From Patescibacteria group bacterium (GTDB taxonomy: Bacteria; Patescibacteriota; UBA1384; DATEAH01): 64,000 nucleotides of DNA. A program made the translations under genes and the position numbers. Shown piece by piece: positions 7,798 through 63,786 of the stretch (positions within the stretch are counted from its first letter, which is position 1; every line of letters begins with the position of its first letter). The notes under the pieces were generated by a model. The model was not told the DNA's origin and ran no database searches. It saw only the letters and a program-made list of their open reading frames with translations. The stretch spans positions 67,636-131,635 of the forward strand of contig DATEAH010000005.1 of the NCBI GenBank assembly GCA_035288465.1. Reading direction: 5' to 3'.

Positions 7798-7990
7798 TGG
7801 CTGAGCCATTTTTCGTGGCTCCGGGACAGGGATTCGAAGGGCTAAAGCCCGTCTCAACGCAGTCGTGGTATTTTTATTTCACGATTTGTGTAATAATTTC
7901 AGCATAAATAATTTTGTGGTTTGCGCAACGGGGTTCTCGCCAGATCACGGACAACTCAAAATCTTCCTATAAAACTGAAAAATTTTGAGT
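7798..7990 (-). mobile_element. putative miniature tRNA-linked element A (between tRNA-Gln and peroxiredoxin gene)
   Basis: Contains terminator-like hairpin, gaacccNNNgcg block, AT-rich block, conserved hairpin gggctttagccc (7839-7850) and a 23-nt duplicate of the tRNA-Gln 3' end (7816-7838). Confidence 0.4.
7816..7838 (-). repeat. duplicate of tRNA-Gln 3' end (T-loop to CCA), 1 mismatch
   Basis: ttcgaatccctgtcccggagcca vs tRNA tccgaatccctatcccggagcca at 7991-8013; lacks T-stem 5' strand so not a tRNA. Confidence 0.85.
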
Positions 7991-8064
7991 TGGCTCCGGG
8001 ATAGGGATTCGGACCCCAATTTTCAGGACCAAAACCTGACGTCCTGCCATTAGACGATCCCGGA
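7991..8064 (-). tRNA. tRNA-Gln (anticodon TTG), CCA encoded
   Basis: Hand-folded cloverleaf: acceptor tccggga/tcccgga, D-stem gtct/ggac, anticodon stem tcagg/cctga, loop ttTTGgt, T-arm tgggg-tccgaat-cccta. Confidence 0.85.
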
Positions 8065-22705: not shown

Positions 22706-23752
22706 TTAATCGTCCCATTCGGGAGGATAAGGAAAAGTGTCTAAATCGTAACCGACCTCCACCAAATCACGATCAATAGCTCTTTTAATACCGGTTTTGG
22801 CTTCAAAATCTAATTGGGCAGCCAGGCGCCGGTGAATGGCTGGCCAATCCTCTCTTGGCAAATACTTCTCGGTTGACCAAGCAAAGTCAGTCCAAGGATT
22901 ATCTCGCATCCGCTTTAAATATCCTGCTAAATCTAAGGTTTCGAAATAGGCGCCATAAAGATGCAAGCTAGTTGAAAGTCCATTCATCTCGCCCGGTACA
23001 ATTTGAATTCCCAAGGCATTCGTGAGCCTAATTGCCCATAACCTTTGGTATTCCGACAAAGCATACATATTCATAGGCCAGCCATTGAAAAGATCATGGG
23101 ACCGAAATATTATGACCCAAACTAGATTATAGGTTTCTTCTTCACAATTCGGATCCTGCAAAAGCCGGAATTGGATCATTTGCAGACAGGGGGCATCTTC
23201 AGAAAAGTTATCAATTTGTGGAATCCAAGTATGCAGCATGTAGTCGCGACCAAAACGATGTTTTGACATCCAGTCTTTTTGCATTTTCTCAATCATTAAC
23301 TTGTCTTGCGATTCAAAATATGTCGTGGCCGGTAAAACAACTTGTACCTCTCTTTCTAAGCGCTGATGGTAAGAATAATCCCAATAAGCTTCCTTTTCAT
23401 CCTCTTCGGTTCTAATGGTAATATCTTTCACCCAGCCATCATGAACTCCAAAACAAACCTCATCTCGATAAACTAACAAACCCTCGGGGGCATCACAACA
23501 ACCAAAGCTATGCAATCTCGGTTCATTAAGCGGCTTTCGGATTGTGTAACCCATGCACGCATCAAATCCGAGCGGAAAGCCTTCTTGATGTTTGGGGGTC
23601 CGTTCCCTTGATCCCAAAAACCAGCAAGCTAAACAAAGTTTGTGCCAGACTTCAGGGACATAATCTCCAACAATACCGATGAACGGGAGCGTACCTTGTT
23701 GTGGTAATTGTGTTAAGTCTTCGATAAGAGCGCGTTCTTGCTGATTCGCCAT
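22706..23752 (-). CDS. divergent thymidylate-synthase-superfamily enzyme (ThyA-like fold, function uncertain)
   Basis: 349 aa from MANQQ; ThyA-like GFPL motif, active-site region DAPCLQMIQF (PCL instead of PCH) and FRSHDLFNGWPMNMYAL matching ThyA [19 protein letters not shown]. Confidence 0.7.
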   Translation of the reverse strand: MANQQERALIEDLTQLPQQGTLPFIGIVGDYVPEVWHKLCLACWFLGSRERTPKHQEGFPLGFDACMGYTIRKPLNEPRLHSFGCCDAPEGLLVYRDEVCFGVHDGWVKDITIRTEEDEKEAYWDYSYHQRLEREVQVVLPATTYFESQDKLMIEKMQKDWMSKHRFGRDYMLHTWIPQIDNFSEDAPCLQMIQFRLLQDPNCEEETYNLVWVIIFRSHDLFNGWPMNMYALSEYQRLWAIRLTNALGIQIVPGEMNGLSTSLHLYGAYFETLDLAGYLKRMRDNPWTDFAWSTEKYLPREDWPAIHRRLAAQLDFEAKTGIKRAIDRDLVEVGYDLDTFPYPPEWDD

Positions 23753-23798
23753 TACTGATCGACCTCCTCGGGTTTTGCGCGGAGTTATAGATGGGATT

Positions 23799-24170
23799 TC
23801 AACGGCAGTACGGGCTATCGCGCCAACCGGCTTCAATATTCTGAATTTCTGATTTAATATCCTCAACCACATCCATTCCACTGGCTTGTAATGCAGCTAC
23901 CATTTCTCTGGTAAAAAACACGCAATCTATTTTCCCATTAACTAATGCCTGATAACTCGTTTCTGTTTCTCGAGGTGGTTTGGGAATAGGACTGACAACA
24001 AAAAATATATTTGCCCGCTCTGCTGGCCGCAGCCCAAACATTAAACCTAATTCTTGGATTTGACTAATTTCTACCGGAGTTAATAGCTCTTGAGCCGCCT
24101 CATCGATAACTAACATTTCTCTGACTTCAAGTTGGTAAGGAAAAAATTCAGGTGAATCTTTAGTTGCCAT
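23799..24170 (-). CDS. hypothetical protein
   Basis: 123 aa ORF between dCMP deaminase and TS-like gene. Confidence 0.5.
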   Translation of the reverse strand: MATKDSPEFFPYQLEVREMLVIDEAAQELLTPVEISQIQELGLMFGLRPAERANIFFVVSPIPKPPRETETSYQALVNGKIDCVFFTREMVAALQASGMDVVEDIKSEIQNIEAGWRDSPYCR

Positions 24171-24184
24171 GGGTACCGACCTCC

Positions 24185-24724
24185 TTAAATAACCTTGCGG
24201 GTTGTTTTGGTTTCATAATTATATTGTTCGACGGCAATATTTGATTCCATCGCCAGTTGGATCGCAAGCTCAAAATCGGTTTTTTCTTCTCCTTTTTCAG
24301 CCTCATCAACTCTTTTAACCCGAGCATATTCTTGGGCAAATACAATCCTTTTTACCCCATAAGCGGCTTGCCTTTTCATGCATTGAGTGCAACATAATCT
24401 CGAAATATACAAAGTGCTACCATCAAATTCACTTCGCGAACGAGAAAGCGTGGCGTTGTCTTCAGCGTGCAAACCCCTACAAGCGTTTCCATGCTTTTTT
24501 GCACAACCAACATGAGGATTATTACAATGCGGATGATCAGGCAATGGTCCATTATAGCCGGTATCAATAATATGATGATTGGGATTGGCATAAACGCAGG
24601 CGACCCGATTATTAATACAGACTGGTCTTTTTGCAAATATAGCCACAATATCCATAAAGGTTTCGTCCCAAGACGGACGTTCGGGTTCGAAAATATCTTC
24701 TTGGTCTTTGTCCACTCGACTCAC
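24185..24724 (-). CDS. dCMP deaminase (ComEB-like zinc deaminase)
   Basis: HAEDNA zinc-binding motif and CCTQC (PCxxC-type) motif; probable GTG start, a second in-frame GTG at 24715 has a better-spaced gggagg RBS. Confidence 0.8.
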   Translation of the reverse strand: MSRVDKDQEDIFEPERPSWDETFMDIVAIFAKRPVCINNRVACVYANPNHHIIDTGYNGPLPDHPHCNNPHVGCAKKHGNACRGLHAEDNATLSRSRSEFDGSTLYISRLCCTQCMKRQAAYGVKRIVFAQEYARVKRVDEAEKGEEKTDFELAIQLAMESNIAVEQYNYETKTTRKVI

Positions 24725-25018: not shown

Positions 25019-25091
25019 GCCCCTGTAGCTCAATGGATAGAGCGCTTCGCTTCGGACGAAGAGGTTGCGGGTTCGACTCCTGCCAGGGGCG
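25019..25091 (+). tRNA. tRNA-Arg (anticodon TCG)
   Basis: Hand-folded: acceptor gcccctg/caggggc, anticodon stem cttcg/cgaag, loop ctTCGga, T-arm gcggg-ttcgact-cctgc. Confidence 0.85.
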
Positions 25092-25094
25092 AGT

Positions 25095-25166
25095 GGGCCT
25101 GTAGCTCAGTGGTAGAGCATCTGCCTCTTAAGCAGAGTGTCGAGGGTTCGATCCCCTCCAGGCCCT
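25095..25166 (+). tRNA. tRNA-Lys (anticodon CTT)
   Basis: acceptor gggcctg/caggccc, anticodon stem tctgc/gcaga, loop ctCTTaa, T-arm gaggg-ttcgatc-ccctc. Confidence 0.85.
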
Positions 25167-25259
25167 TTTCCGGAAAGAAAACTCTTTTGAGGTTTTTTTC
25201 GGAAAATGGCTTGTGGTGGTAAGAACCCACAGGCGATAAATAAACAATTGAGTAAAAAG

Positions 25260-25288
25260 TTGATATTTTAGCAAAGACTTAATATAAA
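25260..25288 (+). promoter_or_regulatory. sigma70-like promoter TTGATA-17-TATAAA inside element C
   Basis: ttgatattttagcaaagacttaatataaa; 30-nt block nearly identical to element B (47338-47366). Confidence 0.45.
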
Positions 25289-25323
25289 TCAAAATGTTGT
25301 TGCATCGGGACGGGGTTTACCCC

Positions 25324-25343
25324 TTCGATCCCCTCCAGGCCCT
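25324..25343 (+). repeat. exact duplicate of tRNA-Lys 3' end (T-loop to discriminator)
   Basis: ttcgatcccctccaggccct identical to 25147-25166. Confidence 0.9.
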
Positions 25344-25437
25344 ATAATCAAAAGCGCTCTTTTTGAGAGGTTTGCGATTATTGCTTGGAAGATGCGAGAA
25401 GCCGTTAGCGGCAAGGTAAAAACCAAAAATAAGGTAG

Positions 25438-25698
25438 TTATTTAACAACAACCTTGTAGATTTTAACGAAGACCCAAGTAGCAATATAACCGGCAATAAA
25501 AGCGGAAACCAGTCCGAGAAGCAGTTTACCAAACGACATGGTGGTCGTATCCCAAATAATACTTAGATTGACTCCGTGAAACCATGTTTGAAAGATAGAC
25601 CGGCTAATGTCGGGCAACAACCAAACTAATAAGCCGCAAAAAAGCGAGACCAAGGTTAAAAATGTTGCCACCGCCAAAGGCGTTTTCTTGGTGTCCAT
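25438..25698 (-). CDS. small membrane protein
   Basis: Start MDTKKTP after gggaggg RBS; two predicted TM helices. Confidence 0.5.
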   Translation of the reverse strand: MDTKKTPLAVATFLTLVSLFCGLLVWLLPDISRSIFQTWFHGVNLSIIWDTTTMSFGKLLLGLVSAFIAGYIATWVFVKIYKVVVK

Positions 25699-47282: not shown

Positions 47283-47450
47283 AGTGGGTAACGAGAGTCG
47301 AAGGGCTGAAGCCCGTCTCAACGCAATTGAATTAAAATTTATTTAATGTTTTTGCTAAAATATCACGTTGATTTTAATAAGTGACTAACGCTTCGGGTTC
47401 GACACACTTACTTATTTCTTTTTGCCGTTTTTAGACGGTACAAAGAAATA
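47283..47450 (-). mobile_element. putative miniature tRNA-linked element B (downstream of tRNA-Trp, upstream of vanX-like gene)
   Basis: Terminator-like hairpin, gaacccgaagcg block, promoter-like block, conserved hairpin gggcttcagccc, 20-nt duplicate of tRNA-Trp 3' end (47283-47302, 2 mismatches). Confidence 0.4.
47338..47366 (-). promoter_or_regulatory. sigma70-like promoter GTGATA-17-AATAAA inside element B
   Basis: Minus-strand gtgatattttagcaaaaacattaaataaa; would transcribe hairpin + tRNA-end copy + vanX-like gene. Confidence 0.4.
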
Positions 47451-47522
47451 AGCGGGTAACGGGAGTCGAACCCGTGTCTTCAGCTTGGAAAGCTGACATA
47501 ATAACCACTATACGATACCCGC
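47451..47522 (-). tRNA. tRNA-Trp (anticodon CCA), no encoded CCA end
   Basis: acceptor gcgggta/tacccgc, anticodon stem cagct/agctg, loop ttCCAag, T-arm acggg-ttcgact-cccgt. Confidence 0.85.
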
Positions 47523-52872: not shown

Positions 52873-52931
52873 CAATTTAAAAAGCGGGATACCGGGATCG
52901 AACTGGCGCCTCCACCTTACCTGCCCGCCAT
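52873..52931 (-). repeat. degenerate tandem copy of tRNA-Gly 3' half immediately downstream of tRNA-Gly
   Basis: gtggaggcgccagttcgatcccggtatcccgct vs tRNA-Gly aagaggtcgccggttcgaatccggtctaccgct; preceded by GGCGCC palindrome; cannot fold into full cloverleaf. Confidence 0.7.
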
Positions 52932-53003
52932 CGATAGAATGAGCGGTAGACCGGATTCGAACCGGCGACCTCTTCCTTGGGAAGGAAGCATTCTGCCACT
53001 GAA
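52932..53003 (-). tRNA. tRNA-Gly (anticodon CCC)
   Basis: acceptor gcggtag/ctaccgc, anticodon stem cttcc/ggaag, loop ttCCCaa, T-arm cgccg-gttcgaa-tccgg. Confidence 0.85.
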
Positions 53004-53170
53004 CTACTACCGCACTTCTTATATATTAGCAAATTCAAGGCTAATAAAAAAGGAAGGCCATACTCGGATGATGCGGGGGTGATAGCAAAAATCTGCTATC
53101 CATCTTCCGAACACGGCCTTTTCGCCTGTTGGTAGGGTTTTCTGCTGGTTGGGATGGGTTGGGTCGCGGT

Positions 53171-62399: not shown

Positions 62400-62469
62400 G
62401 TGAAAATTGCGAAAGCAAGGCCGAAAATCCGCCTTTCGGTGGATGATTCTGCTGCAAAGGGGTGTTGTA

Positions 62470-63786
62470 ATGTCTAGGTTGTATCCGGTTGTTCTGCTAG
62501 TGCTGGTTGTCTCCGTCTTCTCTGGCTGCGGAGGTAGCAATGAGAGTCTGATTCCACCAGTTGGTGGACAGGTTGTCACCACGCCACCGACCGGCCGCGT
62601 CATCGCCTTTGGCGAGGTTGCGAACCTTGCCCGCGGCACGACCATGCACCTCCGGCTGAACCGACAGGGAACAGAGGTACGCGAGTACGAGGTGGCGTTC
62701 CTGTCAACGTTCACACAAGGTCCGGATCACCTCATTGTCTGCCAGACCCCCGCCAGCTTGGCGGTGGGAGCCGGGGATTCCGGATCCCCTCTGATGACGT
62801 CCGATGATCAACTCGCTGGCGCGCTGGCTTTTGGCTGGGACGGCGATGACCACCGGTTCATGGCCCGGTCCATCGACGACATGCTCCGGCTTACCCCGGC
62901 GTCACCCGATCGCGGGATTACATTCAAGGAGCAGGAGATCCCGCTGTCCTATTTCCTGCAAGGAGTCTCTATCCCCACCCTTCAACGGCTAGCAACCCTG
63001 GATCGGACAGGGGTGTCTGACAAGTTCCAGATAATCCCTACGAATCCAGGGAGCAACCGACTGGCTACCTCGGTGCCCATGCCAGGTCAGTCAATCTCGG
63101 TGAATTACATCACCGGACCGCTGGTGACCGGCGGAGCAGTCGGGACCATCACCCATCAAACAGGTGATGACCAGTGGCTGATCTTCGGCCATCAGCTGGA
63201 CAACTTCGGTGAAAGGGCGTTGCCGGTTTCTCTCGCGTCGATGGACGTGATGGTCGAGACGACCTTCGGGTCGTTTAAGCAAGCTCATCCACTCAACCAG
63301 CCAATCGGAACTCTAGTCGAGGACCGGATGTACGGCTGTCGCGTTGACCCTAACCGAAACCCCGAGACGTTCCCGGTGACGGTTCGAGTCAACTACAACG
63401 ACAAGACCGAGAAGTACATCCATCAGGTCGCTGCCGACAAGAGCAGTGGTGTTGAGTTGTACTTCATCTTGGTCGGCATCCTGGCACCACTCGACCAGGT
63501 CTTCAATAAGTATGGACCTGGTACGGCCGAGGGCACATTGATTCTTCGTCTCCAGGGCGCAGGCACACAAACCTACGAAATCACCGTGCCCGAGCCGGCC
63601 ATCGACTACGGCGGCGACGAAGGTTACTACGAGGAGAATCCTTCTCCTCCGTATGTGTCGGATCTTTCCTTGGGTGTCGCGGAGGTGGTGATGACGAAGA
63701 TCTTTGACCTTGCACGGTACCATCCAGGTGTTTCTTTCGCCCGGGTGGAACTCAACGTCACACTCCACGACTTCAAGCCGACATAA
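62470..63786 (+). CDS. GC-rich lipoprotein with trypsin-like serine-protease signature
   Basis: Start MSRLYPVVLLVLVVSVFSGCGG (lipobox) after aaagggg RBS; GAGDSGSPLM resembles S1 GDSGGP catalytic-Ser motif; about 58% GC vs about 35% background. Confidence 0.55.
   Translation: MSRLYPVVLLVLVVSVFSGCGGSNESLIPPVGGQVVTTPPTGRVIAFGEVANLARGTTMHLRLNRQGTEVREYEVAFLSTFTQGPDHLIVCQTPASLAVGAGDSGSPLMTSDDQLAGALAFGWDGDDHRFMARSIDDMLRLTPASPDRGITFKEQEIPLSYFLQGVSIPTLQRLATLDRTGVSDKFQIIPTNPGSNRLATSVPMPGQSISVNYITGPLVTGGAVGTITHQTGDDQWLIFGHQLDNFGERALPVSLASMDVMVETTFGSFKQAHPLNQPIGTLVEDRMYGCRVDPNRNPETFPVTVRVNYNDKTEKYIHQVAADKSSGVELYFILVGILAPLDQVFNKYGPGTAEGTLILRLQGAGTQTYEITVPEPAIDYGGDEGYYEENPSPPYVSDLSLGVAEVVMTKIFDLARYHPGVSFARVELNVTLHDFKPT

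Follow-up and report, generated by a model that had tools for sequence, protein, structure and literature searches.

A short piece of DNA behind a tRNA-Lys(CTT) gene raises the question how the tail of a tRNA gene can come to lie a second time, in the same orientation, downstream of the complete gene, and whether this arrangement represents a small RNA gene or a junction left by integrating DNA. The gene is located in the 64-kb stretch analysed here (referred to as the window) of a groundwater Patescibacteria (candidate phyla radiation, CPR) bacterium, whose TypA protein is at most 70% identical to that of any species representative and finds its nearest relatives in CPR2/Berkelbacteria-like metagenome-assembled genomes. 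In the initial annotation the displaced tail, together with a preceding hairpin and promoter-like hexamers, had been interpreted as a stand-alone RNA of 60–80 nt. Our analysis favours the other possibility: the window contains three units of this type, which resemble the reduced traces of mobile DNA that once entered tRNA genes, and an attachment (att) junction fits them better than an RNA gene. We assign a probability of roughly 0.55 to this reading.

The repeated 20-mer TTCGATCCCCTCCAGGCCCT has two exact plus-strand occurrences in the window (25147–25166 and 25324–25343), as originally reported, and none in 100 shuffles (randomised sequence controls, here and below) even with up to three mismatches allowed. 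Copy 1 comprises the final 20 nt of the tRNA-Lys gene from T54 to the discriminator base, CCA not being encoded by the gene, and the two copies repeat at a spacing of 177 nt with a 157-bp insert in between, in which no credible open reading frame (ORF) was found. The locus with the tRNA, the 157-nt insert and both copies was retrieved in at least 14 contigs of the JGI, ENA and Logan collections; the presence of the duplicate in independent assemblies had been set beforehand as a check by the initial annotation. A 441-bp region around it is exact in 13 of 14 contigs, and the remaining one, which begins inside the region, is 100% identical over its whole length. Because the same region is identical in contigs from different samples and assemblers, assembly error is excluded as the source of the repeat. 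The contigs of this population do not differ from one another and display no within-population variation. Source metagenomes include JGI 3300025322, ERZ27254851 and SRR3989306, and the organism occurs in Rifle-type aquifer samples. The next genes downstream of copy 2 lie on the minus strand and are thus convergent, as described before.

The arrangement at tRNA-Lys belongs to a family, as had also been supposed. The hairpin-region motif GACGGGNTTTANCCCTTCGA matches at 25309 on the plus strand, on the minus strand at 7834–7853 and, with one mismatch, at 47298–47317 (0.09 matches expected), and all three sites in the window sit downstream of a tRNA, the two others being tRNA-Gln(TTG) and tRNA-Gly(TCC). 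The displaced copies are TTCGAATCCCTGTCCCGGAGCCA at Gln (7838–7816; 21/23 identical to the gene, i.e. two mismatches, encoded CCA included) and TTCGACTCTCGTTACCCACT at Gly (47302–47283; 18/20 identical, likewise two mismatches), compared to 20/20 identical positions at Lys. Each of them begins exactly at T54 and stops at the last encoded base. Since CCA is found only in the displaced copy at Gln, whose gene encodes CCA, the copies derive from the gene and not from the mature tRNA.

According to a three-way alignment the inserts are gene-less, 148–157 bp long and share a common layout, which runs from the tRNA over a terminator-type hairpin, a “GAACCC” box, an AT-rich block and a conserved end block to the tRNA copy (Table 1). 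The hairpin directly following the tRNA is locus-specific and unconserved among the three units. Over the module of ca. 115 nt the units are only 56–61% identical, and its last 25 nt reach about 80–95% (estimated by eye from the alignment); the AT-rich block is near-identical between Lys and Gly (TGATATTTTAGCAAARAC.TTAA.ATAAAT). The conserved end has the family consensus TTGC-RTYGRG-AC-GGGS-TTYA-SCCC and is present in all three units. It contains the GGGG-TTTA-CCCC hairpin, found precisely where the initial annotation had placed it, and contributes to a larger imperfect palindrome whose 3′ arm takes in the first six nucleotides (TTCGAT; family TTCGAN) of the tRNA copy. In the three sequences 29 of 30 cells of this palindrome are paired with two compensatory pairs, a degree of covariation which is reached by 65 of 500 shuffles and is thus not significant. 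Searches with a covariance model of the module and with an nhmmer profile detected no copies beyond the three in 84 kb of this genome, and no members in related CPR loci of 0.8–1.4 Mb; the proposed search for the motif in further DNA of the same genome therefore returned the three copies within the 84 kb but none in the 20 kb added to the window. The idea that the “GAACCC” box is an older degenerate copy of the 3′ end of its own tRNA was rejected, as no diagonal signal appeared for Lys or Gln. In the Gly insert, a segment at 47377–47391 (minus strand), CGTTAGTCACTTATT, resembles the end of tRNA-Gly(TCC) plus the first downstream bases CGTTACCCGCTTATT with a score reached by 27 of 3000 shuffles. 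Tentatively, a second displaced fragment of greater age may be seen in this segment, in which case integration would have occurred more than once at the Gly locus.

Table 1. Features of the tRNA-Lys locus and its two paralogues in the window.
Feature	Position	Strand	Basis
tRNA-Arg(TCG), first of the Arg-Lys tRNA pair	25019–25091	+	ARAGORN; Rfam 69.8 bits
tRNA-Lys(CTT), no encoded CCA; read as attL-type junction	25095–25166	+	ARAGORN; Rfam 74.2 bits
Repeat copy 1, T54 to discriminator base of tRNA-Lys	25147–25166	+	exact repeat search
Long A/T-flanked hairpin directly after tRNA-Lys, terminator-type	25167–25205	+	RNAfold
“GAACCC box” hairpin GGCTTGTGG-TGGTAAGAAC-CCACAGGC, start of the module common to the three units	25208–25234	+	alignments
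Conserved AT-rich block, putatively promoter-like on either strand	25260–25292	both	sequence, promoter scan, alignment
Conserved right end at Lys, TTGC-ATCGGG-AC-GGGG-TTTA-CCCC	25300–25323	+	motif scan, alignment
10-bp imperfect palindrome with AC bulge	25304–25329	+	RNAalifold; −9.5 kcal/mol
Hairpin GGGG-TTTA-CCCC	25312–25323	+	sequence
Repeat copy 2, read as displaced tRNA-Lys 3′ fragment (attR-type junction)	25324–25343	+	exact repeat search
Weak hairpin CGCTC-TTTTT-GAGAG after copy 2, not called a terminator	25355–25369	+	sequence, scan
DUF5676 gene, next downstream of copy 2, convergent	25438–25698	−	gene annotation
Gln paralogue: tRNA-Gln(TTG) 7991–8064, 152-bp insert, hairpin motif 7853–7834	7816–8064	−	
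Gly paralogue: tRNA-Gly(TCC) 47451–47522, 148-bp insert, hairpin motif 47317–47298	47283–47522	−	

On entering tRNA genes, genomic islands and prophages interrupt the gene and rebuild it with a copy of their own, so that the regenerated gene and the displaced 3′ fragment remain as direct repeats (Islander concept; PMC4383910), and the T-loop is a classic crossover site of integrases, termed sublocation II by Williams and used e.g. by mycobacteriophage Ms6 (PMC1762012). In the window, a same-orientation copy of the tRNA 3′ part lies downstream of the gene at all three loci, the conserved non-tRNA block adjoins each displaced copy upstream, i.e. on the prospective element side, and the tRNA-proximal side is unconserved. 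In the ssrA islands of Dehalococcoides a 20-bp direct repeat starts midway through the T-loop, and a conserved 15-bp motif which does not align to the gene stands in front of each displaced repeat (PMC3146451). Elements flanked by att sites but devoid of recombination genes, understood as decayed integrative and conjugative or integrative and mobilizable elements (ICEs, IMEs) that retain attL and attR, are termed cis-mobilizable elements (CIMEs; PMC5704250); when this definition is applied here, the repeats are found intact and no genes lie between them. In addition, the viral contig L116 (IMG/VR UViG_3300022538_000288, positions 1300–2270) carries the 3′ half of a tRNA-Gly(TCC), extending from the anticodon stem as far as the 3′ end and lying 48 nt upstream of a gene for a 282-residue tyrosine integrase and with a ParB-like gene on the opposite side, which corresponds to a textbook attP, and a second viral contig (L118) contains a tRNA fragment beginning at T54. 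Judged from these sequences, tRNA-tail attP sites of this general kind do exist, including one for the tRNA-Gly(TCC) type.

Two further features concern the history of the repeats. At Lys, weak homology exists between the ca. 50 nt following copy 1 and those following copy 2 (alignment score 26, attained by 20 of 3000 shuffles); both flanks possess a CTC-TTTT-GAG core, which the weak hairpin behind copy 2 resembles, and GCTTG at the end, and the 20-mer itself is identical. Such weak homology would be the expected outcome if a diverged relative had been the source of the tRNA tail and flank carried by the element, the combination of an identical tail with a diverged flank being explained by selection on the tRNA, which preserves the tail. 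The flanks also bear on a local, non-mobile origin by tandem duplication of the tRNA 3′ end and its flank through slippage or unequal crossover and subsequent decay, as the Lys duplication indeed seems to extend about 50 nt past the 20-mer. This explanation, however, accounts neither for a non-tRNA module of ca. 110 nt with a palindromic end at three tRNAs nor for the start of every copy at T54, and we consider it very unlikely. At Gln, the T-loop reads TCCGAAT (C55) in the gene but has the canonical form TTCGAAT in the displaced copy, which suggests that the displaced copy represents the ancestral one. The two mismatches in each of the Gln and Gly copies are as expected for decaying fragments. 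The tRNA-Gln(TTG) gene (7991–8064, minus strand) is also conspicuous in its own right: position 55, normally U/pseudouridine, is occupied by C, and its Rfam score of 55.2 bits is the lowest among the tRNAs of the window.

On this basis we propose a scenario for the origin of the Lys unit. An element consisting of the conserved arm with the palindrome, the tRNA-Lys sequence from T-loop to 3′ end and a flank with a terminator would have recombined in the T-loop of the chromosomal tRNA-Lys gene. The tail and terminator flank of the element would now complete and terminate the tRNA-Lys gene, thereby forming an attL-type junction, and the native tail would have been displaced 177 bp downstream to lie beside the conserved arm of the element as an attR-type junction. 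The remaining 157 bp would then be composed of ca. 50 nt of element-borne flank followed by an arm of ca. 108 nt, which ends in the palindrome at the crossover point; the palindrome or conserved right end presumably served as the binding site of the recombinase. Loss of the remaining element content would have produced a gene-less, att-flanked, CIME-like remnant. Diverged relatives of the element with Gln- and Gly-specific tails might have integrated earlier, because the displaced copies at these loci have decayed by two substitutions each. The empty site corresponding to this scenario would read tRNA-Lys ...CCAGGCCCT joined directly to ATAATCAAAAGCGC, and the junction of an excised circle ...GGGGTTTACCCC-TTCGATCCCCTCCAGGCCCT-TTTCCGGAAAG. 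We regard the full sequence of events at tRNA-Lys as slightly favoured over its negation. Directly observed are the repeats with their limits, the family and its conserved end, the lack of the insert in a syntenic relative and the lack of recombinase genes in the window, whereas the integration itself, the assignment of the native copy, the binding-site role of the palindrome and any promoter activity are inferred. The outward-facing AT-rich block may now act as a promoter for downstream host genes at Gln and Gly, where genes for a peroxiredoxin and an M15 peptidase (dipeptidase) follow the displaced copy in the same orientation at distances of ca. 57 and ca. 17 nt, respectively.

A promoter function of this block is also the starting point of a rival view, according to which the units are working expression modules composed of a promoter, a hairpin handle and a tRNA-tail mimic, producing a small RNA at Lys or a leader at Gln and Gly. 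The consensus-like promoter of the initial annotation, TTGATA-17-TATAAA at 25260–25288, is indeed present ca. 35 nt upstream of the hairpin with 5/6 and 5/6 matches (by count) to TTGACA/TATAAT, but the critical T at the end of the −10 hexamer is missing, and the promoter scan passes over this promoter and reports instead a minus-strand TTGATT-16-(TG)C-TAAAAT (25292 to 25265) in the same AT-rich block. The corresponding minus-strand extended −10 is TGCTAAAAT at Lys and Gly and TGTAATAAT at Gln, and for the block this reading is at least as good as that of a plus-strand promoter. The view of an expression module gains from the fact that this block is the best-conserved internal part between Lys and Gly, that at Gln and Gly the insert provides the sole intergenic space for a peroxiredoxin or M15 peptidase promoter, and that the Lys copy has stayed 20/20 identical despite its diverged flank. 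Likewise, the outer stem of the hairpin uses G·U pairs, which would be C·A mismatches on the other strand; this favours a strand-specific structure on the plus strand. The two covarying pairs are also in line with an expression module, although the covariation lacks significance.

These arguments are opposed by the remaining properties expected of an RNA gene. The terminator suspected after copy 2 was not recovered, the scan finding no terminator-like site there, and Rfam contains no family matching the units at gathering or permissive thresholds; the tRNA models of ARAGORN and Rfam are silent at 25290–25345. The folding of the putative RNAs of ca. 54 nt is not superior to that of shuffles (z-scores between +0.97 and −1.43), and the hairpins alone reach −8 to −9.5 kcal/mol with z-scores between −0.7 and −1.8. 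At Gln and Gly the copies have diverged from the tRNAs to which they belong, one change at Gly breaking the acceptor pairing with the Gly 5′ strand; as both copies carry two mismatches, identity to the tRNA is not maintained. The CCUCC tract, formerly listed as a component of the RNA, is peculiar to tRNA-Lys. At Gln and Gly, the copies precede co-oriented protein genes, and a stand-alone RNA is therefore not a property of the family. Finally, the module is absent from the 0.8–1.4 Mb of related CPR loci and from a syntenic relative (see below). A stand-alone 60–80-nt RNA is thus unsupported, and the expression module as a whole appears unlikely. Two other RNA structures were discarded: a long-range pairing between the box and the hairpin flank is unconserved in the three-way alignment, and a C-to-T change in the Gly copy, which might have been compensatory by pairing with an upstream GAGA, yields CTCTCG, a natural tRNA-Gly variant whose T-stem matches it in the viral contig L116.

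A more far-reaching version of an RNA function would be that the units are live short-RNA genes, i.e. programmable guides or mimics that steer a recombinase or nuclease to the region between T-loop and 3′ end of the tRNA or titrate a binder of tRNA 3′ ends, which we judge to be highly improbable; it would amount to RNA-guided targeting of tRNA genes in CPR bacteria. In its specific form of guide-RNA homing, the hairpin handle and the 20-nt tRNA-identical segment would constitute a crRNA- or omega-RNA-like molecule directing a nuclease or recombinase to the tRNA gene. A handle followed by 20–23 nt identical to the target resembles the layout of Cas12 and TnpB guides, and the sense orientation of the segment would allow pairing with the template DNA strand. 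However, genes of the cas, tnpB, iscB or IS110 type were not revealed in the window by domain scans and Pfam lists, and the “spacer” 20-mer is not followed by a second repeat. The sole nearby transposase, a Y1_Tnp protein encoded ca. 18 kb left of the window, is associated with repeats (GGGGGACGGTTCTC) that are unrelated to the module save for a 7-mer, and of all the explanations considered, guide-RNA homing seems the most improbable. A link of the units to this Y1_Tnp gene (IS200/RAYT-like) was also rejected, given that its terminal repeats surround only that gene, are absent from the window and overlap with the module by the 7-mer alone. It codes for 215 residues and lies on contig L107 (18300–19200) of the same genome, flanked by inverted GGGGGACGGTTCTC copies, with a duplication on one side. 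Its neighbours are DUF433/DUF5615 toxin-antitoxin genes, a NucS-like gene and a LexA-methyltransferase fusion, and the region looks like a mobile or defence islet.

Information about the state without the insert was obtained from a related organism (contig L102; Logan SRR22388013), whose DUF5676 protein is 87% identical and which shares the order SDR, small ORF, DUF5676 and convergent tRNA-Lys(CTT). At this syntenic tRNA-Lys there is no insert, no duplicate and no module, and similarity to the window starts again downstream of copy 2, at GCTTGGAA. Sister-species sequence was seen in SRR22388013 and in SRR25490537. No relative with conserved gene order was found for the Gln and Gly loci, the closest homologues of the peroxiredoxin (66%) and the M15 peptidase (71–76%) being located in other contexts. 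A relative without the unit, the similarity of the three units in size and layout, the perfect Lys repeats and the conserved terminal palindrome would also be compatible with a still-mobile, miniature non-autonomous element, i.e. an att-only unit comparable to a miniature inverted-repeat transposable element, which is mobilised by a recombinase acting in trans from the genome or a helper. Nevertheless, each unit is tied to a different tRNA, so that the units are not copies of one another, the modules are only 56–61% identical, and the site is occupied in 14 of 14 contigs, no empty-site variant (CCAGGCCCT joined to ATAATCAAAAGC after a complete tRNA-Lys) having been retrieved. A circle of 177 bp is, moreover, a poor recombination substrate. 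A unit that is mobile at present is in our opinion distinctly unlikely.

The interpretation of the units as decayed integration footprints has to be weighed against several findings. First, Pfam scans and precomputed annotations covering nearly all genes failed to reveal a gene for an integrase, a transposase or any other recombinase, be it between the repeats or elsewhere in the 64 kb; the annotated genes of the window serve housekeeping, type IV pilus and cell-envelope functions. Second, viral, genome and metagenome collections yielded no full-length parent element in which the conserved end occurs, a negative result of limited weight, since the metagenome collection returned only one of the many motif-bearing contigs of this organism. 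The motif scans gave no match in the genome collection, a single one in the metagenome collection (the Gln locus of the same strain) and one in the viral collection, a chance match in an apparent coding sequence; the exact tRNA-Lys 20-mer is absent from the viral contigs, and BLAST of the inserts against phage and plasmid collections produced AT-rich chance matches only. Third, three independent decays to 148–157 bp with the same layout are unexpected from random deletion, and the near-equal sizes demand an extra assumption, either selection for the terminator and promoter or an element that has always been miniature. Selection of this kind leaves the Lys unit unexplained, because no downstream gene is present there. 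Fourth, the related contig L102 does not offer a clean empty site, as the 60 nt after its tRNA-Lys are unrelated to either flank in the window. Fifth, the ACCCC to the left of T54 in the displaced copy is unlike the T-stem 5′ strand GAGGG which a simple inverted core-site model would require. The recombinase, if any, need not have been a classical tyrosine integrase with core sites in the T-stem, as far as the sequence of the junction can tell.

Comparison with described systems reveals both related and deviating features. The units share with attL/attR sites of tyrosine-integrase islands and prophages at the T-loop the direct repeat from T-loop to gene end and the combination of a regenerated gene and a displaced fragment (PMC1762012, PMC4383910). 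They differ from them in that merely 148–157 bp lie between the repeats, integrase and cargo are missing, and a small palindrome instead of a T-stem-like half-site is found left of the crossover. The ssrA islands of Dehalococcoides are similar with respect to the 20-bp 3′-end repeat starting in the T-loop, the conserved motif in front of the displaced repeats and the occurrence of closely spaced repeat arrays, but they are kilobases long, integrate by means of a serine-recombinase module, target the tmRNA gene and belong to another lineage (PMC3146451). With CIMEs the units have the flanking att sites and the lack of recombination genes in common (PMC5704250). In contrast, they measure only about 0.15 kb and no partner element is visible. 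Described CIMEs are kilobase-sized and arranged in tandem with live ICEs. Correia elements of Neisseria are, like the units reported here, ca. 150 bp long, intergenic and AT-rich and possibly supply promoters; they have terminal inverted repeats, a TA duplication and hundreds of near-identical copies, whereas the window contains three diverged copies without terminal inverted repeats and with a 20-nt tRNA-specific repeat. In the split tRNAs of Nanoarchaeum a separate 3′ fragment follows a promoter-like sequence and a GC-rich element, as is the case here, but in the present units the upstream tRNA is complete, the fragment starts from position 54 and not 38, and there is no complementary 5′ partner.

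While direct repeats of tRNA tails as marks of integration are textbook knowledge, the reduction to a gene-less unit of ca. 0.15 kb and the presence of three diverged paralogues with a palindromic end within 64 kb of a CPR genome, with no known parent, are new. If the integration scenario is correct, the tRNA genes of a streamlined CPR bacterium would have been hit repeatedly by integrative DNA targeting the T-loop, which was subsequently pared down to about 150 bp, the leftovers being a terminator, a possible promoter and a recombinase-binding end. In lineages with almost no known integrative elements or temperate phages, such footprints could serve to trace the passage of mobile elements in the past, and the remnants may have rewired the transcription of genes adjacent to tRNAs. 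In practical terms, the parent elements and their recombinase can be searched for with the conserved palindrome as a concrete motif. Should the units turn out to be expressed, the design of a hairpin plus a tRNA tail would make them a much more unusual object.

Other tRNA-derived fragments were noticed in this and related genomes. A 47-nt tRNA-like “minihelix”, GCGGGCAGGTAAGGTGGAGGCGCCAGTTCGATCCCGGTATCCCGCT, is located at 52883–52929 (minus strand), 11 nt downstream of tRNA-Gly(CCC) (52941–53013). It consists of an acceptor-like stem and a T-arm-like hairpin without D or anticodon arms; its fold is unremarkable, ARAGORN and Rfam are silent, and among the tRNA tails it is most similar locally to that of its own upstream tRNA-Gly(CCC), with a score of 34 against a background of 10–20. 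On the reverse strand of L102, a partial tRNA-Lys(CTT) is followed without a spacer by a 53-nt tRNA-like fragment, CCCTGCAGAAGTTAAGGTATTGGTTCCGGGTTCTAGACCCGAATGTCCCTCCA, which has a T-arm-like hairpin, ends with CCA and shares a TAAGGT spacer motif with the minihelix of the window. Tail-like copies 126–193 nt downstream of a tRNA were also seen in Berkelbacteria behind tRNA-Trp (L037, 13400–13700) and tRNA-Ala (L039, 7998–8220), the former locus containing in addition a CGAGACGGGG motif, situated 45 nt ahead of the distal copy, and between +25 and +65 a fragment resembling the minihelix. The occurrence of tRNA 3′ fragments at short distances may thus be a more general feature of CPR genomes.

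Two regions of the window are of separate interest. Between 62200 and 64000 the GC content rises from ca. 0.35 to 0.46–0.58, indicating compositionally foreign DNA, and the one long ORF in this segment (62407–63786, plus strand; 459 residues from the first TTG) corresponds to a 447-residue gene without Pfam match on other contigs of the organism (L109, 8493–9836). Upstream of the tRNA-Arg/Lys pair, at 22706–24724 (minus strand), genes for a dCMP deaminase, a 123-residue ORF and a very divergent thymidylate-synthase-like protein (348–391 residues; Pfam E = 6e-4, below the gathering cutoff) are clustered, and the cluster could be a nucleotide-modification module and not one for plain thymidylate synthesis.

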